From the NCBI RefSeq assembly GCF_036321535.1, contig NC_087436.1, positions 15,252,001 through 15,316,000 of the forward strand: a stretch of 64,000 bases of DNA. The letters are read 5' to 3'. A program made the position numbers and the translations under genes. The stretch is from Camelus dromedarius. Taxonomy: Eukaryota. Below the pieces are notes generated by a model. The model made no database searches and was not told the DNA's origin. It saw only the letters and a program-made list of their open reading frames with translations. Shown one piece after another: positions 3,001 to 37,025 of this stretch. The first letter of the stretch is position 1. Each line of letters opens with the position of its first letter.

Positions 3001-4237
3001 CTGCTTTTGGATGGAATGCTCTATAAATATCAGTTAAGTCCATCTGGTCTAATGTGTCATTTAAGGCCTATGTTTCCTTATTGATTTTCTGTCTAGGTGA
3101 TCTGTCCATTGGTGTAAGTGGGGTGTTTAGGTCCCCCACTATTATTGTGTTACTGTTGATTTCTCCTTTTATGTCTGTTAACAGTTGCCTTATACATTGA
3201 GGTGCTCCTGTGTTGGGTGCATGTACATTTACAGTTGTTACATCTTCTTCTTGGATTGATCCCTTGAGCATTATGTAGTGTCCTTCTTTGTTTCTTGTAA
3301 CAGTCCTTATTTTAAAGTCTTTTGTCTGATATAAGCTTTTCTACTCCAGCTTTCTTTTGGTTTCCATTTGTATGGAATATCTTTTTCCATCTCCTCACTT
3401 TCAGCCTCTAGCTCTAAAGTGGGTCTCTTGTAGGCAGCATATTCATGGGTCTTGTTTTTGTATCCATTCAGCCAGTCTGTCTTTTGGTTGGAGCATTTAA
3501 TCCATTTACAGTTAAGGTGATTATTGATACGTATGTTTTTATTGCTGTTTTGTTGTTTTGGATTTGTTTTTGTAAGTCTTTTTTTCCCCTTTCTTCTTTT
3601 TGTTCTCTTGTGATTTGATGACTATAGCATTACATTTGGATTCCTCTCTTTTTCTTATGTATGTCTATTATAGATTTTTGGTTTGCAGTTACCATGAGGT
3701 TTTGGTGTAGAAGCCTGTGTATATATATGATTGTTTTAAGTGGCTGATCTCTTAATTTCAAATGCATTTTAGATACCCTGCACTCGTACTCTCCTCCCCT
3801 CAGGATTACTGGTTTTGATATTTTTTACATCTAGTTGTTTTGTGTATTGTTTAACTGCTTATTGTGGATACAAATGATTTTTACTACTTTTGTCTTTGAA
3901 CCTCCGTATTAGTTTGTGTATGGATGATTTCCTACCCTTACTGTATATTTGCCTTTACTGTTGAGCCTTCCCTTTTTGTAATTTTCTTGTTTATATCTGT
4001 GGCCTTTACTTTTCCACCTAGAGAAGCTCCTTTAGCTTTTGTTTTAAAGCTGGCTTGGGGGTACTGAATTCTTTTAGCTTTTGCTTATCTGTGAAGCTTT
4101 TGATTTCTCCAACAAATCTGAGTGAGAGCCTTGCTGGGTAGAGTATTCTCGGTTGTACGTTTTTCCCTTTCATCACTTTAAATATATCATGCCACTCGCT
4201 TCTGGCCTGCAGAGTTTCTGCTGAAAAATCAGCTGAT
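1..4237 (-). mobile_element. Older, decayed LINE-1, 5'-truncated inside ORF1; 3' end lies beyond the window start
   Basis: Minus-strand ORF fragments match L1 ORF2p: EN (3068-3271), RT '[13 protein letters not shown]...SGTRQGCP' (1520-1951), '[11 protein letters not shown]' (1201-1530) and the C-terminal region (372-716). The ORF1 C-terminus (LSADFSAETLQAR...LKELL*) has its stop at 4018-4020. Many frameshifts and stops. Confidence 0.95.
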
Positions 4238-23590: not shown

Positions 23591-24070
23591 TCCCTCTCCC
23601 CTTGTGTCTATATTATGTTTAGGCAAAATCCATTTTTTCTTTTTCTTTTTCTCTGACTTTTCATTTATTCCACAAAGATTGCTAGAAGTTTTGAAAATAT
23701 AAAAATGGAGGACATTGTCTTTCTTCCTAAAAATTGTTCTCAAGTTGGTCCTGTTTCTTCCCGCCTGTGTCTTTGTGAATATGTACTTTATCCACAGCTA
23801 TAGATCACAGCACAGCTTCAACCCCGTCTTGCGCCTTTTTCACTCAGCGCTAGTTTGGAAACATGGAGAGAAGGGGGTTAGATCGTTTTGACTGTACTTT
23901 ACACCCATACAGGGGCTAGTTCCTAGGAAACCAGGAGACTTGACATGCGGGGTTAGAAAATTTTTGCAAGTGGCATGGCTTCTAGACACAAACCTCCGTG
24001 TTGATGACAGGTGGGTTTCCTCTAAGCAAATGAAGTACTCAGCGGCAGGCCGTCTCCTCTCTCCGCCCAG

Positions 24071-24260
24071 GTTCATGCCGGAGCCCAACCTGCCCCCGCT
24101 GCTGCTCTATGACTCGGCGTCCCTGCCTGCTGGCGCAGACCCGCAGCAGGTGATCAACATTGACCGGATCCGGGAGCAGCTCCCTGAGCTGCCCAGCGTG
24201 ACTCGGGAGAAGCTGGTGCGACGGTACGGGATGCTGCCAGAGCACAGCTTCGCCTTACTG
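24071..24260 (+). CDS. GATB: GATB exon 9 ([13 protein letters not shown]...LPELP...[12 protein letters not shown])
   Basis: ccgcccag|G TTC ATG ... CTG|gtgggt; 190 nt; FMPEPNLP and LPELP motifs. Confidence 0.97.
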
Positions 24261-27200
24261 GTGGGTATCGATTGGGAGGCTGCATTGAGCTTGGCAGCTG
24301 GGGATGCTCTGCAGGGGGCTGCGGGTGGAGCGTCCCGATGGCTTCAGTTGTACTGCAGAACGAGATGTGATGACCTTGGCTCACCAGCCCTTATGATCAG
24401 TGCGCCTCAGAAAACGAGACATGGCGTCTCCTGTCAGTTATTTCTTGTGTATAGAAGTGAACAGTCACCCACCACTGCCGGGGAGGCGTCCTGAAGACGG
24501 TCCAGCTGTAACAGATGAATGTTTCCCTGTGCATCTGGGAGACAAAGGAAAATCAAAGTATAGGCTTTCCAGATGTCTGACAGTATTGAACCATGACAGG
24601 GTCTGGCAGGAAGCTGGGCTCTCAAAAAGCCAGCCAGTTGTATTACTGCTTGTAGAGGGAAACATTCCACACAAAATGCCAAAAACTCGGACCAGAAGTG
24701 TCGGTCCTCTGAGGCTTGAGAATGCTTCTGAAGAGAATCTGACACCGCGCAGATCTGTCAGGGATTTTCCATCCTCCCAGGGCTGCTGGGACTTTGTAGT
24801 TTCCCTTTGTCACGGCAATGTTAAAGCGACACAGTGGCCATGAAGTGGCATTCCATCACGGATGCTTTCCTGTCTGTCAGGGAGGAAGTGGCAGGTCCTG
24901 CTGCGTCTCTCAGGGGCAGGGTGTCCACTGCACTCATCGTGGGCAGCACGTGAATCGCTGGGAACGCCAGAGCTTTGCATTTTAATTGACCCATAATAAC
25001 ACATAGGGATGTCAGGGGATTTGTATTTGTGTTCAGACTTACCCACTTCAGTAACAACACCCAGTGTTTCTGGTCCAACACAGGCCAGCGAATGTTGAAT
25101 GAATGAGTCTTTCTGTATCATCTGTTAATCAGTTAATCTGAAAAGTATCCAGAGAGTATCCAAAACTCGGTTTTGGTAAATCGACTTCAGAAAAACACAC
25201 AAGTGCTAAGAGGCTTCAGGTTAAAAGGTGTTCCGTACAAGCTGCACGTGAAGGCTCTCACCACCGGGATTGGACACGGTGGGTTATTTTCTCATCCTTA
25301 GAGTTGATCGCTGCCTCCTCTGGGCTGCTGTTGTCTCTTACACCTCTGCGGCGATTACATCGGCTGTATTTTAATTATTTATTAATTAATGTATTTTGTT
25401 CAGTGCCTTGAACACAAGGACTGTTCCATCCTCTCTCTTTGTCACTCAGGGCAGATTAGCTCATCAACAGTGCTAATTAAGCGCATTAAGCCAAGTCTTT
25501 GTGTGAGTCAGTTCGTCTTTGTGAGTCAGTTAGTCTGCATCTTGTTCAGAGTACCTTTTAACCTGAAACCTCTTAAAACTCACCAATTTTTCCCAAGTTG
25601 ATTTAACAAAACTGAGTTTTAGCCTCACACATCTTCCCCACCATCTTGAATTTCCAGCCCGCTTGAAATAAACTCCAGACTAAACACTAAAGCCTAAATT
25701 CCAGTCCTGCATTTTGTAACATGTTTGCCGAATTCTATAATGGGTGGGAGGACCCAGACCAAGCCTCCGCCGCCACAGACAGTGCCCTCACTGGCCCCGG
25801 AAGGAAGCCCCTGCGGCAGAGACACGTCTGTATCTGTGCCCGGGCCCCACACCTCTGTCTTTCAGGTGCCACAGCCTCGGAGGTCTTGAATAAATATTTG
25901 CTGAAGGTGGCAAGTGATGAGTGGGTCTCACTTTTCATAGTTTAAGGCCCTGTTTAGGGGAACTTCTTTTTGATCTATTCATTTCAGCACTTTTATTAGC
26001 ATCTCCTATGTAGCAGGTACTGAGATAGGGACAAAGTTGTTGTTGTTGTTGTTTTTAATGTTTTCTTTGCTTTCTAAGAGCGTGTGTGTATATGTGTGTG
26101 TGGCACTACAGCTAACCAACCCCGGGGCAGGCTGCAATGTACAATGTAGGCTGGGAGCCCAGAGGAGGTAATGATTACCTTGATGGGACAACAGGGGGAA
26201 AAAATTAAAGAAGAAGGTGGTTTTGAGCCAGTTTTGTAGGGACTTACTCTTTTGATATATTAAAAATATGCTTATTTTTACAGCTTGCAAATAATGTATT
26301 AGGTGATTAGTTTGGGGTTTTTTTTTTCAATATATGTAATGTCTAGTACTAGAAATTCTCAAGACAGGTGAGAAGAGAACTTGATCGGAATGGAAAGAGA
26401 ATGATTCAGACACTTTCCTGAAATTCGCCATCCTGAGCTCCTGATGACTTGGGTCATCAGTGGAAGCTGAGTTACTCATAACGTACTCATAACGGTGTGT
26501 CCGTGTTTTCTCCTGCCTTCATCAGAAACACAACAGATTGCCAAGAAGGGCAGATGCACAAATCTAATGAACCATCTTTCAATCTAAAGAGTGCCCAGGA
26601 GTATTCATTAAATCAGTAGCTGTGGTGGAGGTGTGCTCTGCAGAGCTTTGACTCTATGCTTCTGCTTCCGGATCGCTCATTAATTAAACATGATGCACAT
26701 AACCCACTCCCACACAGGCCTCACCCACCACCAACAAAAAACTTTAAAACTCAACTCTAGCCTTTAACTTATCCTGTCATCTTACAGCACTGATTGCGTA
26801 TTGATCATTTCTTCCTGGTATTTACAGAGCTCTGACGTGGGTGTATCTTGTCACCCGACACAATGTCTGGCACATAGGAGGCATCCGTGAATGGCTGGAC
26901 AGACAGGTAGATGAACAGGGCACTATCATGGCGCTTAGGGAGGTCCTAGGAGAAGCAGCAATCCTATTAAGCATCCCTGTTTCCAAAGGTCGGATACATA
27001 AACCATTGACCACATGAACCTTTTTGACAGGCCAGCAAGTCAGGGGGTGGCATGTGTGTCCCTGAGCTCCGGGAAAGAAGGCTGATATTTGCCCCTCAGC
27101 CACTCCACATGCAGTGGCTGGCCACACGTCCCTCAGTCTCTCTGACTCTTGTTTTCTGAACTGGTTTCTTTAGGACATTAAATCAACTCTACATTCTGAT

Positions 27201-29895: not shown

Positions 29896-29910
29896 CTGCT
29901 GTCAACTTTT
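29896..29910. repeat. Left target-site duplication of the full-length L1 (CTGCTGTCAACTTTT)
   Basis: Identical 15-mer at 37011-37025. Confidence 0.95.
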
Positions 29911-30230
29911 TTTTTTTAACATTGTTATTGATTTATAATCATTTTACAATGTTGTGTCAAATTCCAGTGTTCAGCACAATTTTTCAGTTATTCATGGACA
30001 TATACACACTCATTGTCACATTTTTTTCTCTGTGAGTTATCATAACATTTTGTGTATATTTCCCTGTGCTATACAGTGTAGTCTATTCTACAATTTTGAA
30101 ATCCCAGTCTATCCCTTCCCACCCTCCACCCCCCTGGTAACCACAAGTCTGTATTCTCTGTCTGTGAGTCCATTTCTGTCCTTTATTTACGCTTTGTTTT
30201 TGTTTGTTTGTTTGTTTTTGTTTTTGTTTT

Positions 30231-33200
30231 TTAGATTCCACATATGAGCGATCTCATATAGTATTTTTCTTTCTCTTTCTGGCTTATTTCACTTAGAATG
30301 ACATTCTCCAGGAGCATCCATGTTGCTGCAAATGGCATTATGTTGTCAGTTTTTATGGCTGAGTAGTATTCCATTGTATAAATATACCACATCTTCTTTA
30401 TCCAGTCACCTGTTGATGGACATTTAGGCTGTTTCCATGTTTTGGCTATTGTAAATAGTGCTGCTATGAACATTGGGGTGCAGGTGTCATCCTGAAGTAG
30501 ATTTCCTTCTGGATACAAGCCCAGGAGTGGGATTCCTGGGTCATATGGTAAGTCTATTCCTAGTCTTTTGAGGAATCTCCACACTGTTTTCCATAGTGGC
30601 TGCACCAAACTGCATTCCCACCAGCAGTGTAGGAGGGTTCCCCTTTCTCCACAGCCTCTCCAGCATTTGTCATTTGTGGATTTTTGAATGACGGCCATTC
30701 TGACTGGTGTGAGGTGGTACCTCATTGTAGTTTTGATTTGCATTTCTCTGATAATTAGTGATATGGAGCATTTTTTCATGTGCTTTTTGATCATTTGTAT
30801 GTCTTCCTTGGAGAATTGCTTGTTTAGGTCTTCTGCCCATTTTTGGATTGGGTTGTTTATTTTTTTCTTATTGAGTCACATGAGCTGCTTATATATTCTG
30901 GAGATCAAGCCTTTATCGGTTTCACTTGCAAAAATTTTCTCCCATTCCGTAGGTTTTCTTCTTGTTTTATTTCTGGTTTCCTTTGCTGTGCAGAAGCTTG
31001 TAAGTTTCATTAGGTCCCATTTGTTTATTCTTGCTTTTATTTCTTCTAGGAGAAAATTTTTGAGATGTATGTCAGATAATGTTTTGCCTATGTTTTCCTC
31101 TAGGAGGTTTATTGTATCTTGTCTTATGTTTAAGTCTTTAATCCATTTTGAGTTGATTTTTGTATATGGTGTAAGGGAGTGTTCTAGCTTCACTGTTTTC
31201 CATGCTGCTGTCCAGTTTTCCCAACACCATTTGCTGAAGAGACTGTCTTTATTCCAATGTATATTCTTGCCTCCTTTGTCAAAGATGAGTTGACCAAAAG
31301 TTTGTGGGTTCATTTCTGGGCTCTCTATTCTGTTCCATTGGTCTATATGTCTGTTTTGGTACCAATACCATGCTGTCTTGATGACTGTAGCTCTATAGTA
31401 TTGTCTGAAGTCTGGGAGAGTTATTCCTCCAGCCTCTTTCTTTCTCTTCAGTAATGCTTTGGCAATTCTAGGTCTTTGATGGTTCCATATGAATTTTATT
31501 ATGATTTGTTCTAGTTCTGTGAAATCTGTCCTGGGTAATTGGATAGGGATTGCATTAAATCTGTAGATTGCCTTGGGCAGTGTGAGCATTTTAACAATAT
31601 TGATTCTTCCAATCCAAGAGCATGGAATATCTTTCCATTTTTTAAAGTCTTCTTTAATTTCCTTCATCAATGGTTTATAGTTTTCTGTGTATAATTCTTT
31701 CACCTCCTTGGTTAGATTTATTCCCAGATATTTTATTACTTTGGGTGCTATTTTAAAGGGGATTGTTTCTTTACTTTCTTCTTCTGTTGATTTATCGTTA
31801 GTGTAAAGATATGCAACTGATTTTTGAACGTTAATTTTGTAACCTGCTACCTTGCTGAATTCTTCAATCAGCTCTAGTAGCTTTTGTGTGGACCTTTTAG
31901 GGTTTTCTACATATAGTAACATGTCATCAGCATATAATGACACTTTTACCTCTTCTTTTCCAATTTGGATCCCTTTTATTTCTTTCTCTTGCCTGACTGC
32001 TGTGGCTAGGACTTCCAGGACTATACTGAATAGGAGTGGTGATAGTGGGCATCCTTGTCTTGTCCCAGATTTTAGTGGGAAGCTTTTGAGTTTTTCACCG
32101 TTGAGTACTATGCTGGCTGTAGGTTTGTCATATATAGCTTTTATTATGTTGAGATATGTTCCCTCTATACCCACTTTAGTGAGAGTTTTTATCATAAATG
32201 GGTGTTGAATTTTATCAAATGCTTTTTCTGCATCGATTGAGATGATCACGTGGTTTTTGTCCTTTCTCTTGTTGATGTGATGTATTACACTGATTGATTT
32301 GCGTATGTTGAACCAGCCTTGTGTCCCTGGGATGAACCCCACTTGGTCATGATGTATAATCTTTTTTATGTGTCGTTGGATTCTATTTCCTAAAATTTTG
32401 GTGAGGATTTTGGCGTCTATGTTCATCAGTGATATTGGCCTATAATTCTCTTTTTTTGTAGTGTCTTTGCCTGGTTTTGGTATCAGGGTGATGGTGGCTT
32501 CATAGAATGAGTTTGGGAGTATTCCCTCCTTTTCAATCGTCTGGAAGAGTTTGAGAAGGACTGGTATGAGTTCTTCTTTGTATGTTTGGTAGAATTCCCC
32601 GGTGAAGCCGTCCGGTCCTGGACTTTTATTTGTAGGGAGGTTTTTAATTGCTATTTCTATTTCCTTTCTAGTGATCGGATTGTTCAAGTGTTCAGATTCT
32701 TCTTGATTCAGTTTTGGTGGACAGTATGTTTCCAGAAACTTGTCCATCTCCTCTAGGTTATCCAGTTTGGTTCCATATAGTTTTTCATAATATTCTCGTA
32801 TGATATTCTGTATTTCTATTTTGTTTGTTGTAATTTCTCCATTTTCCTTTCTTATTTTGCTAATTTGTGCTCTCTCTTTTTTCTTCTTTGTGAGTTTGGC
32901 CAGAGGTTTTGTCGATTTTATTTACTTTTTCAAAAAACCAGCTTTTGGTTTGGTTGATTTTTTCTATGGTCTTGTTAATCTCTATTGTATTTAATTCCTC
33001 TCTGATCTTTATTATTTCCTTCCTTCTGCTGCTTTTTGGGGCTTTTTGTTCTTCTTTTTCTAATTCATTCAGGTGGTGGGTTAAGTTGTTTATTTGAGAT
33101 TGTTCTTCTTTTTTGAGGAAGGCCTGTATCGCTATAAACTTCCTCTTAGCACTGCCTTTGCTGTGTCCCATAGGTTTTGAGTGGTTGTGCTTTCATTATC

Positions 33201-34028
33201 ATTTGTCTCAAGGTATTTTTTAATTTCAGCTTTGATTTCCTCATTGATCCATTGTTTTTTCAATAACATATTGTTTAATCTCCATGCTTTCCTTTTTTTC
33301 TCCTTTGTTTCTCTGTTGTTGATTTCCAGTTTCATGGCATTGTGGTCAGTAAAGATGCTTGAGATAATTTCTATCTTCTTAAAATTGTTGAGGTTTCTTT
33401 TGTGCCCAAGTACATGATCGATCCTGGAAAATGTTCCATGTGCACTTGAAAAGAATGTATATCCTATTTTTGGGGGGTGTAATGCTCTGAAAATATCCAC
33501 CAAATCTAGTTTTTCTATTGTAGTATTTAATTTCTCTGTTGCCTTGTTTATTTTCTGTCTGGAAGATCTGTCTAGTGATGTTAATGCAGTGTTAAAATCT
33601 CCAACTATGATTGTATTCCCATCAATATCCCTCTTTATCTCTGTTAGTAATTCTTGTATGTACTTAGGTGCTCCTATATTGGGTGCATATATATTAATGA
33701 GTGTAATATCCTCATCTTGTATCCCTCCTTTAATCATTATAAAATGTCCTTCTTTATCTTTCTTTATGGCCTTTGTTTTAAAGTCTATTTTGTCTGAAAT
33801 CAGTACTGCAACACCTGCTTTTTTGGCTTTTCCATTTGCATGGAATATCCTTTTCCATCCTTTCACTCTCAATCTATATGTGTCCTTCTCCCTAAAGTGG
33901 GTCTCTTGTATGCAGCATATTGAAGGTTCTTGCTTTATTATCCAGTCTGCCACTCTGTGTCTTTTGACTGGAGCATTTAGTCCGTTAACATTTACAGTAA
34001 TTAATGATAGATGTGTGTTTATTGCCGT
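30231..34028 (-). pseudogene. L1 ORF2 (APE endonuclease, reverse transcriptase, CCHC), disrupted
   Basis: N-terminus (T)AINTHLSLITVNVNGLNAPVKRHR; EN motifs CCIQETH, GDFN and TDHNA; RT QGCPLSP and YADD; CCHC '[18 protein letters not shown]'. Lesions: ACG start, -1 at ~33141, +1 at 32907-32910, in-frame TGA at 30876-30878. Confidence 0.95.
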
Positions 34029-34246
34029 TTTGAACTTATCTTTGCAGTTGAATTGGTATATCCTCTTTGTTCCTTTCTTCTTCCTTTTGTGGTTTGGTAA
34101 TTTTCCTTTGTATTATCATGGATTTTATTTACTTTTTGTGACTCCTTTGTAAATTTTTGGCTTGTGGTTACCCTTTTTTGTAAATCTGTCAACCCATTAC
34201 TATAACTGTTTTTATTAAACTGATAGTAACATGATCTCAAACCCAT
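34019..34246 (-). other. 75-codon ATG-initiated ORF in the L1 inter-ORF spacer; its stop overlaps the ORF2 start
   Basis: Present in the ORF track; homologous in-frame relic at 3767-3630 in the older L1. Translation not demonstrated. Confidence 0.45.
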
Positions 34247-34433
34247 CCTACTGTTAAAAAAAATTTAAAAAAGAAAGAAAAAAATATTCTATACTTCCCT
34301 GCCTCCCTCTCCCACTCTCAGTGATTTGTATGTCTTCTTTTATAATTTCATGTTTACTTTATTTGTAATTCATGAGTTATCACCTTTCCAGTTGTGTGTT
34401 TCTCATTTCTGTAGCATCCTGCTGCTTTTCTAT

Positions 34434-35338
34434 TTAGAATAGCCCTTTCAGTATTTCTTTTAGCATGGGTTTAGTGTTGCTAAACTCCTGCAGCTTTTTT
34501 TTTGTCTGTGAAACTCTTTATTTCTCCTTGTATCCTCAAGGATAGCCTTGCTGGATAAAGGATCCTAGGCTGCATCTTTTTTTCATTCAGGGCTTTGAAT
34601 ATATCTTGCCACTCCCTTCTGGCCTGTAGTGTTTGTGTAGAGAAATCAGCTGAGAGCCTTATGGGGGTTCCCTTGTAACTTACTCTTTGCTTTTCTCTTG
34701 CTGCCTTTAGAATCATTTCTTTATCCTTGACTCTGGCCATCTTGATTATGATATGTCTTGGTGTGGGTCTATTTGGGTTCTTCCTGTTTGGGACCCTCTG
34801 AGCTTCCTGTACTTGGATATCTGATTCCTTCTTTTAAGTTTGGGAAGTTTTCAGTCATGATTTCTTCAAAAACCTTTTCAATCCCCTTTGATCTTTCTTC
34901 TCCTTCTGGGACCCCTATTATGCGAAGATTGGGACGCTTTATATTATCCCATAGGTCCCTTATGCTATTTTCATTATTTTTTATTTGCTTCTCTTGTAGT
35001 TCTTCTGAATGGGTGCTTTCTATTGCCCTGTCTTCTAGATCACTAATTCGTTCCTCTGCATTATCTAGTTGGCTTTGCACAGCTATTAGATCATTCCTCA
35101 TCTCTGTCAATGAGTTTGCCCATTCTACTTGGCTCTTCTTTATAGCTTCAATTTCATTTTTGACATATTTTATATCTCTAAACACTATCTCTTTTAATTC
35201 CTTCAGCAATTCGATCACTCCTTTTTTGAAATCTTGATCTAGTAGGCTATCGATGTCTATTTCGTTGATCTTTCTTTCAGGGGATTTCTCTTGTTCTTTT
35301 AATTGGGAAAGGTTTTCCTGCTTCTTCATCTTGCTCAT
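34434..35338 (-). pseudogene. L1 ORF1 (coiled coil, RRM, CTD) with two +1 frameshifts
   Basis: MSKMKKQ...LWDNIKRPNLRIIGVPEGEE...ENFPNL / ILKAAREK...IRLSADFS...YPARLS. Extra A in the runs at 34832-34835 and 34495-34503; restored stop TAA at 34436-34434. Confidence 0.93.
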
Positions 35339-35799
35339 ACCTCTTTGGCACTTTATGGAGTATCAGTTGTTTATTTTGGTCCTTAAGGATTTTATCTATC
35401 TGATGCCTATTTAGGAATAGAACTTAGGAAAAAAAGAAAAAAAAATAGAGAGAGAGAAAGAATTTTAAAAGAAGGAAGAAAGAGGGTTTGAAAACAGTGT
35501 ATAATGAATAATAAAAGAGTGAGTTGAAGCAGAGTATTAATCGGGTTGAGACGTCCTTTTAAAAACTTTACAAAAAAAAGGGGGGGGGGAGATGAATAGA
35601 TGTATTTGAAACCTGTGTCTAATCAATAGCAGGACATCAAAACCCAAGAGAAATAGAAATGAATTAAGAAGTAAAGATTAAGAGAGTAATAGAAAATAGA
35701 ACAGGTAAAAACAGATTTAAAAAAAAGGGGGGGGGGGGTTTGTCGGTGTTCTCCTGGAGTCTGTGTGCTTTTAATGTGAAGTCTTTCTGTCTTCGTCCT

Positions 35800-37010
35800 G
35801 TTTTGGAAGCTCAGCTTGCTGTTTTCAGAGGCCCTCCGTTGGCGCCCTCTTCTGTGCTGCTCCCAGCACCTGTCGGCAAGCCGATCGCGCCTCCTCCTAA
35901 CAGTGGGTCAGGTGCAGCTCTCTGCTGTGGGCGGGCGGGTGGGTCGCTGCCCCTCCGGATGCCACAGTCAGATGTTGCAGACTGGCCGGGTAGGAGGGCG
36001 GGTCGTGCCCCCTCCCAGCACCTCGGTCAGGGGCTGTGTTCCTGCCCGAAAGGCGGGGGGGGGGGGGGCTCTCCCTCTACCTGCGCTGCTGGTAGTTCCG
36101 CTCTGTGCGGCTGCGCGCTCCGCCCTGCTCGGCGCTCCGCAGGTGGGCTCGGGGAAGACCCAGGGACAGCCCTGTCCCTGCTCTGAGCCAAAACCCAGCT
36201 CCTTGTTTGTGTTTGTGGAGCAAGTTCTCTGAGGGACCAGAATGGAAGGATCCTATCTGCCCCGGGCTGCAGGCCAGTCTCAGTCTGGCCTTTGAGGCTG
36301 CTAAGCCCTTTGGTGTGGATGCAGGTTTCGCCCCGCCCCCGCCTGAGTGCTCAGCGAGGAGGATATGGCGGCTGTGCCTGAGCCCCACCTCTCTTCCCCA
36401 GAAAACCTTCCGCGGGTTTTCAGAGATGGGGGTGTGCACCCTTCCCCCGAGAGCACATCAACCTTGCTGTTTTATGGAGGGCCCAGGTTGTTATGCCCTG
36501 TGCACCCACAGCCACGGCGCGCAGCCCCTTGCGTTCCCCCGGGGCTGCCTCCGTGCAGCCACTTCCGTCCTCCGCCCGGCTTGTGCAGCCTGGCCCTGCC
36601 CGCGGCTGCCTGCCCGTGTCTCAGGCTGGGTGTCGGGGGGACGCTCTGTGCCCGTTTAACTTAGTTCTGTTAGTCAAGGGCTGCTCTGTACAGATCCGAG
36701 CCTCGGAGGCTCCCCCTCCGTCCAGCTGGCCTCTCAGTTGGAGAGGGGAGACCCATCGAGCGAGCGCCAGTCCTCCTTTGCCGCTCCCTCCCCGCGGGAC
36801 CCGTCCTGCGCTGCTTTGCCTTTTGTTCTTTCGTTTTTCCTTTTCTCCTACTAGATTTTTGGCGTCTTTATCTTTTGAAGAGGGCGATGTTCTGTCGGAG
36901 TTCCACAGGTGCTCTGGTTGGCTGAGTGGGTCTGTAGATGTGGGTCTTGGTGTATTTGTGGGAGAGGGTGACCTGCGAGCGTCCTTCTACTCCGCCATCT
37001 ACTCTGTCTC
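35800..37010 (-). promoter_or_regulatory. L1 internal promoter: CpG-rich 5' UTR with a YY1 site
   Basis: High GC/CpG density by eye. YY1 core CCGCCATCT at 36992-37000, ~10-19 nt inside the 5' end, as in other mammalian L1s. Confidence 0.8.
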
Positions 37011-37025
37011 CTGCTGTCAACTTTT
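37011..37025. repeat. Right target-site duplication of the full-length L1
   Basis: CTGCTGTCAACTTTT, identical to 29896-29910. Confidence 0.95.

Follow-up and report, generated by a model that had tools for sequence, protein, structure and literature searches.

A reading frame in the ORF1-ORF2 spacer is kept open across long-spacer placental LINE-1 lineages and may relay ribosomes to ORF2

How LINE-1 (L1) makes ORF2p, the enzyme behind mammalian retrotransposition, is still debated. Human ORF2 is translated by termination/reinitiation (Alisch et al. 2006, as given in PMC5972666, PMC4072516, and PMC5381506), and stop-restart coupling is described for SART1, which uses a UAAUG overlap, and for caliciviruses and influenza B, which use a TURBS (PMC5972666; the papers cited here were accessible in part, and what we say of them refers to those parts). 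Long spacers between ORF1 and ORF2 occur in Laurasiatheria, Afrotheria, and marsupials and have been shortened repeatedly (PMC4072516, PMC5381506, PMC5872511, and PMC6501411). Yang et al. 2014 (PMC4072516) pointed to the survival of such long, apparently inhibitory spacers as puzzling; they also voiced and partly tested the idea that small spacer ORFs aid ORF2 reinitiation, proposing that those of megabat L1 bring a stop near ORF2. In their assays, retrotransposition dropped 3.3-fold upon removal of the spacer AUGs, 6.9-fold upon loss of the 3' third, and 8.8-fold when the spacer was shuffled, and one-third-length fragments were just 0.3-0.5-fold above full length; no conserved spacer ORF is named in the accessible parts of that paper. 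Boissinot and Sookdeo 2016 (PMC5381506) predicted a dicistrovirus-like IRES structure for long spacers. An extra L1 ORF is known in primates, the 71-aa ORF0 without known domain (Denli et al. 2015), and the accessible parts of two reviews of reinitiation (PMC5972666 and PMC10275272), a paper on ancestral L1 (PMC9252281), and an L1 survey (PMC5203782) hold only ORF0 or IRES/reinitiation models. The preliminary description of the locus reported here had stated that it knew of no functional account of its spacer ORF, and our search, which had most subscription papers and the Repbase/Dfam notes outside its range, found no conserved sense spacer ORF described. The selected reading frame that we report in long-spacer placental L1s is thus apparently new to the literature.

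The ORF lies in a young L1 in the 64,000-nt stretch of the Camelus dromedarius genome that we analyzed (hereafter the window), where we annotated the following features.

29911..37014, minus strand: full-length young LINE-1, about 7.1 kb, with a poly(A) tail and an 11-nt target-site duplication
29900-29910 and 37015-37025: the two copies of the 11-nt target-site duplication flanking the young LINE-1
34434..35338, minus strand: L1 ORF1, with Pfam trimer, RBD, and dsRBD-like domains, frameshifted here; TAA at 34436-34434
34029..34433, minus strand: ORF1-ORF2 spacer, 405 nt, 46% A
ATGs near 34417, 34406, 34373, and 34351, minus strand: four mini-uORFs of 3-8 codons, upstream of the spacer ORF
34019..34246, minus strand: spacer ORF, 75 codons plus TAA, in a strong Kozak context (A at -3 and G at +4)
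34154..34171, minus strand: VTTSQK, codons 26-31 of the spacer ORF and its best-conserved stretch
34026..34028, minus strand: ORF2 start codon, ACG here and ATG in 28 of the 30 top genome copies
30231..34028, minus strand: L1 ORF2, endonuclease plus reverse transcriptase, fragmented in this copy
3630..3767, minus strand: decayed homologous frame in an older L1, with its ATG at 3767, VTxxQK at residues 26-31, and a stop at codon 46

Membership of the L1 clade is evident from the trimer, RBD, and dsRBD domains of ORF1, the APE endonuclease and reverse transcriptase, the poly(A), and the target-site duplication, and both ORF1 and ORF2 are broken in this copy. From the ORF1 stop (34436-34434) to the ORF2 start (34028), the spacer measures the 405 bp initially reported, and the uninterrupted, ATG-initiated 75-codon ORF is present on the minus strand at 34246-34019. 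Its ATG stands 218 nt before the ORF2 start, VTT begins 75 nt after that ATG, and the first base of the TAA is 7 nt downstream of that of the ORF2 start codon (+7), which places the TAA, as first described, in ORF2 codons 3-4 with ORF2 in the -1 frame. The resulting overlap reads AUG-4 nt-UAA, its TAA being also dictated by ORF2's own Ile codon. Three further AUGs lie inside the spacer ORF in other frames, and the plus strand across the region is full of stops. Such an arrangement is rarely produced by chance: an out-of-frame ATG ORF of 75 or more codons whose end lies no more than 10 nt from the ORF2 AUG has P = 0.0013 in 20,000 Markov spacers, and the absence of any stop in the ORF region has P = 0.0008 against a shuffled control.

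Two observations concern the surroundings of the element. A near-identical copy of the L1 region, with an ORF2 ATG, lies on the opposite strand ~70 kb away (G000:C1:15214880-15215580) and is a local duplication, a gene conversion, or an assembly duplicate. On the plus strand of the window, positions 24030-24290 hold an exon-like coding stretch, which we tentatively assign to mitochondrial amidotransferase subunit B (GATB); a Pfam search with the ORF as given returned nothing. If the assignment to GATB is right, the young L1 is intronic and antisense.

The older L1 in the window has a spacer of 469 nt (4017-3549) and a decayed ORF2 start at 3548. A parallel had been drawn between the two copies, and it stands for the VTxxQK motif, found at residues 26-31 in both, and fails for an ATG at the same distance and in the same frame, since that of the older copy is 219 nt from the decayed ORF2 start, in frame 0, with its stop at codon 46. 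The homology of the older frame is real and is visible at the family level.

Since inserted copies decay neutrally, we tested for selection between master lineages. In brief, we gathered 174 copies, consisting of 30 of the 40 listed matches to the young element, 30 of the 40 listed matches to the old copy, 17 of the 18 matches of one DNA pattern, and 97 of the best 100 of 307 matches of a second. The patterns specify two short anchors and put no constraint on the reading frame in between; the VTxxQK motif itself served as search anchor for older copies. The resulting tree is a ladder, which we cut by eye into 13 families (labels are our own) of 6-31 copies each, with one near-duplicate removed. 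Copies differ by 0.9-25% from the majority of their own family, and families were read as column majorities, which are related to one another and not independent. Within the young family, the spacer ORF is intact in 25 of the 30 top copies; we rejected this as a sign of selection, because the first 75 codons of ORF2 are equally intact (26/30), and the count therefore shows merely that the young master was open. Many young copies have a stop-free run of 112 codons, versus 81, with no earlier AUG, apparently because an altered tract length extends the frame upstream to just past a mini-uORF stop (34247-34360, minus strand).

Over the 13 family majorities, the spacer-ORF frame contains 7 stops, whereas the two alternative frames have 85 and 68, with 5-9 stops over the same bases in most families, and the upstream spacer has no comparable stop-poor frame. 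Eight of the 13 families (Y, A1a, A1b, A2, B, C, D1, and E) are open to a stop at +7, and in 7 of these 8 the ATG lies exactly 75 nt before the VT codons, the 5' part of D1 being a microsatellite. The other five (D0, D2, D3, F, and G) are not cleanly open to +7. D0 has one in-frame TGA (8 copies) and keeps its end point at +7; F is one base short, with a stop at an apparent decayed CpG; and the reading of G changes with the alignment. In D3, and ambiguously in D2, the frame closes at a TAA located 7 nt ahead of the ORF2 AUG, so that the stop occupies a position suited to stop-restart coupling in the eight open families plus D0 (+7) and in D2 and D3 (-7). D3 is an amplified natural frameshift variant in which a shared 4-nt deletion changes the last ~25 residues, the stop still falling within 7 nt of the AUG; the deletion is common to about half of the old copies (L031, L032, L034, and 13 others; window 3548-3767).

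These differences are not those of a neutral sequence. A neutral simulation on a nine-family tree, which omits D2, D3, F, and G, an omission favoring the result, predicted 16-27 stops with ~7 of 8 tips broken, and 1 stop was seen (P ≤ 0.0014). The 200 differences between successive families should have included 13.7 nonsense changes, and at most 1 is found (P = 1.7e-5). Net indels in the ORF over the five steps C-B-A2-A1a-A1b-Y were 3, 6 (aligned as 5+1), and 12 nt, i.e., multiples of 3 throughout, versus 3 of 20 for upstream spacer indels. Raw anchor distances in 100 decayed copies split 43/29/28, a modest lean to the frame (one-sided p = 0.03; chi-square p = 0.12). These findings show selection across L1 master lineages on the openness of the frame, on where its AUG lies, and on where it ends, and they show that the frame has been kept against nonsense and frameshift changes as that of a protein-coding gene is. 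The original proposal, that the spacer holds a conserved frame tied to the start of ORF2, is supported at the family level by both the stop depletion and the 3n indels.

The amino-acid sequence behaves differently. A codon model of 10 families, from which G, F, and D3 were left out and parts of D1 and D2 masked, gave a dN/dS of 0.78-0.81, compared to 0.15-0.21 for ORF2 codons 2-32 and 0.89-1.26 for the alternative frames. Once the anchor codons are removed, dN/dS is 0.83 (p = 0.29 against 1 and p = 0.004 against 0.5), statistically no different from 1. Along the six-family line that leads to the young element, values were 0.61-0.65 (p 0.047-0.08), among them 0.63 at p = 0.066, and the C-half of the ORF, anchors included, gave 0.54-0.62. 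The young and oldest families share 36% amino-acid and 64% nucleotide identity. The K and R content, noted initially as rich, amounts to 23% versus 26% expected from base composition and is no protein signal. Searches with the peptide found no Pfam family and no usable match in the Atlas, and AlphaFold2 predicted no fold (pLDDT 55.6; pTM 0.20). The sequence of the peptide is thus at most weakly constrained. Since frame, start, and end point are kept and the sequence is not, translation of the spacer ORF would matter more than its product.

How widespread is this frame? The elephant, hyrax, pig, and opossum spacers were read by eye, not machine-translated, and the expectation of the same frame in other mammals held for elephant, hyrax, and several pig consensus spacers. 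In the 458-nt elephant spacer (PMC5381506, supplement 4), an AUG at 196 is followed by VTT at +75 nt and by 87 open codons plus 2 nt; in the 422-nt hyrax spacer (same supplement), an AUG at 169 opens 84 codons plus 2 nt. ORF2 is in the -1 frame in both if the listed spacers end at the ORF2 AUG, the stops lying beyond the visible sequence. By rough composition, each open frame has a probability of ~8e-4, and the two peptides have little in common beyond VTT. In the opossum spacer, no long frame extends to ORF2. Among 33 of the 45 places in the pig consensuses of Chen et al. 2019, we located 26 ORF2 starts, and seven of the places were read completely. In places 2, 3, and 10, the frame runs without a stop from the AUG to KWQ* over 80, 80, and 75 codons; places 23 and 25 (L1D-type by file position) are open and end at +11 or +7 according to poly(A) length; place 13 is shifted in its poly(A) run; and place 1 has a short spacer and has lost the ORF. 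The end frame of young pig consensus spacers depends on poly(A) length. In the pig consensus of PMC5381506, the frame is closed by a stop at codon 49 within a poly(A) run, though a 15-codon AUG ORF ends on the same overlap. The alpaca L1-1_Vpa spacer, at 442 nt and 46.2% A (PMC4072516 Table S2), resembles the present one (46% A). Since elephant, pig, and camelid-type spacers share the same AUG-to-VTT spacing, we argue that the long spacer is a single inherited element, also in pig, where PMC5381506 has it regained.

Gene-called proteins add to this picture. A search with the single sequence returned 3 proteins, and profile searches returned 1,089 and 2,268 gene-called homologs. Among the 120 listed matches of the 1,089, nearly all from ENA assemblies, 50 start exactly 25 residues before VT and 20 have KWQ-like tails. 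We did not count these homologs for conservation or expression, because they are predictions selected for open frames. In two lineages of homologs (P0059, P0079, and P0099; P0016, P0035, and P0072), the frame extends upstream, to ~120 codons from soon after the ORF1 stop or by 19 extra codons, and the ancestral spacer ORF may have been longer, or a link in a chain of relay ORFs. A scan of GTDB gave 4 loci, none with a long spacer, viral contigs gave 0 loci, and a metagenome pattern scan gave 15 loci, none of them L1 by tblastn. Mammalian L1 fragments in two bacterial genome records (L061 and L062) are host contamination; L062 has a short ORF1-ORF2 junction, presumably rodent-like.

Because the frame, start, and end point are kept and the peptide is not, we favor the possibility that, in long-spacer placental L1s, the spacer ORF acts in cis as a relay that brings ribosomes to ORF2 for its synthesis, a reading drawn from sequence comparison to which we give slightly better than an even chance. 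Ribosomes ending ORF1 would restart within the spacer, ~190 nt on and past the four mini-uORFs, and initiate at the strong-context AUG of the spacer ORF. As elongating ribosomes, they would then traverse the remaining ~220 A-rich bases with their decoy AUGs, terminate 7 nt past the ORF2 AUG, step back, and reinitiate on ORF2. Deletions placing the ORF1 stop some tens of bases from ORF2, as in human, two pig subfamilies, and recent horse L1, would make the relay dispensable. The megabat spacer is likewise long and Laurasiatherian, and, on the assumption that it is homologous to the present one, the AUG-removal, truncation, and shuffle results fit a relay, which would offer one explanation for all three. 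In family F, an in-frame ATG stands 36 nt ahead of ORF2, matching the 36-bp alternative start of the megabat study, which is a hint only as to that homology. A frame kept from Afrotheria to Laurasiatheria and ending on the ORF2 AUG would be a specific answer to the long-spacer puzzle.

Several observations weigh against a relay, among them the lack of a UGGGA tether and of stable structure at the junction. UGGGA (TURBS motif 1) occurs within 250 nt of the ORF2 start in none of the 13 families; the nearest is 258-296 nt upstream in five, and eight have none. With no UGGGA at a short, fixed distance upstream of the junction, we rejected the calicivirus/influenza B TURBS class. No stable structure surrounds the junction (z +1.67 upstream and +0.58 downstream, the latter for one 141-nt stretch), and the spacer-ORF region folds worse than shuffled sequence; coupling of the SART1 type was rejected, since the UAAUG overlap is absent and no stable structure lies downstream (z +0.58). 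After an ORF of 75-85 codons, reinitiation should be inefficient unless a TURBS-like tether is present, and the usual effect of an out-of-frame uORF that overlaps a start codon is to repress that start. Also against a relay are the 5 of 13 families not cleanly open to +7, the second role of the overlap TAA in ORF2's Ile codon, the tie of the pig end frame to poly(A) length together with the published pig consensus that stops at codon 49, and the lower activity of long spacers than of the human spacer in human cells.

A further feature of the region lies immediately upstream of the spacer-ORF AUG (~34250-34320, minus strand), where a pyrimidine tract grew longer on the way to the young family. 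Its terminal AG resembles that of a splice acceptor (the elephant is without AG there), and the tract can pair with an upstream purine tract in a hairpin of ~20 bp, whose z of -1.5 to -1.7 falls short of significance. A search pattern that catches just part of the possible splicing events detected no spliced retrocopy among 761 young copies, and on that result the idea of a spliced subgenomic RNA was set aside; the tract is missing in 2 of the 761, both the same local variant.

The strong Kozak AUG and the out-of-frame overlap of the ORF2 start would also suit an attenuator, an overlapping uORF that captures ribosomes and carries them past the ORF2 AUG, keeping ORF2p scarce and limiting its toxic endonuclease. 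Although the near-neutral peptide, and the reduced retrotransposition with long bat and pig spacers in cell assays, agree with this, we consider it unlikely, since removal of all AUGs from the megabat spacer lowered activity rather than raising it (PMC4072516), and a repressor has no need of a stop within 7-11 nt of the AUG.

Alternatively, the ORF might encode a third L1 protein, a ~9-kDa basic, mostly disordered polypeptide, fast-evolving like the ORF1p N-terminus and acting on the RNP or host. A length that stays at 75-87 codons and an unchanging distance from AUG to VTT throughout placental history would be natural for a protein, as would the lower dN/dS of the lineage to the young element and of the C-half, and a pure relay could be far shorter. 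The overall dN/dS not below 1, the divergence between the young and oldest families and between elephant and hyrax peptides, the composition-driven K/R content, the absence of a Pfam family, Atlas match, or confident fold, and the repeated loss of the ORF from successful L1 lineages make this improbable. A combined scenario, to our minds doubtful, is that the ancestral placental L1 was tricistronic, its middle cistron relaying ribosomes to ORF2 and also yielding a fast-evolving ~9-kDa peptide with a role in the L1 particle or against host defense, the two-gene L1s of human and mouse being deletion derivatives. If true, thousands of fossil copies in mammalian genomes would hold an unrecognized small gene.

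A conserved frame with a near-neutral peptide could also mean that ribosome coverage of the A-rich spacer is what matters (guarding the RNA against decay or premature polyadenylation, or clearing ORF1p), with no hand-over to ORF2, and the longer upstream extensions in gene-called homologs would agree. This leaves unexplained why the end point sits on the ORF2 AUG, even after the D3 frameshift, and why the 15-codon pig ORF, as read by eye, ends on the same overlap, and we judge it very unlikely. The same low standing goes to a by-product, in which a conserved T-poor RNA element, e.g., the predicted IRES-like structure, lacks stops in one frame by chance. A dN/dS near 1, conservation of the third positions of the VTT motif too, the IRES predictions for long spacers (PMC5381506), the choice of older copies by DNA anchors, and the just modest lean of raw anchor distances speak for it; the 5-9 stops of the other two frames in most families, the 3n indel bias, the retention of AUG and frame in the highly divergent elephant and hyrax spacers, and the worse-than-shuffled folding have already largely refuted it.

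Fusion by a programmed -1 frameshift, in which the spacer ORF would slip into ORF2 to give an N-terminally extended ORF2p, is scarcely credible and was rejected: in 11 of 13 families the ORF2 frame stays open for 18-43 codons ahead of the ORF2 AUG, and A-rich slippery-type heptamers occur in 8 of 13, but none is at a shared position, they are absent from the young family, A1a, A1b, C, and F, family C has just 5 open codons upstream, no downstream stimulator is present, and the A-AAA-C site first put forward rests on a private ATG>ACG change (28 of the 30 top copies have ATG and an ORF ending in ...KWQ*). Among the three mechanisms originally proposed, the ribosome relay is thus the best fit, slippage fails, and a basic protein is weakly supported at best.

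Set beside described systems, the spacer ORF is unlike ORF0, which is antisense, in the 5'UTR, and primate-specific, whereas the spacer ORF is sense, inter-ORF, and common to Laurasiatheria and Afrotheria. The IRES model (PMC5381506) addresses the same sequences and question, and mentions no ORF in the accessible parts of the paper, though its elephant and hyrax spacers contain the frame. Like SART1, caliciviruses, and influenza B, the spacer has an upstream stop a few bases from a downstream AUG in a different frame. In those systems, a major protein gene lies upstream and coupling needs a TURBS or a downstream structure; here, the upstream ORF specifies a near-neutral peptide, the stop comes 4 nt after the AUG, and we found neither UGGGA nor stable structure. 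The spacer ORF therefore appears to work like a stop-restart relay, yet outside the TURBS, SART1, and -1 frameshift classes. In human L1, ORF2 likewise relies on translation ending just upstream, without a known viral-type tether; there, a 63-nt spacer couples ORF1 directly to ORF2, whereas in the present element a 75-codon cistron stands between the two and overlaps the ORF2 start. A spacer-ORF relay would add a cellular case of relay or stop-restart translation that works without a viral tether.
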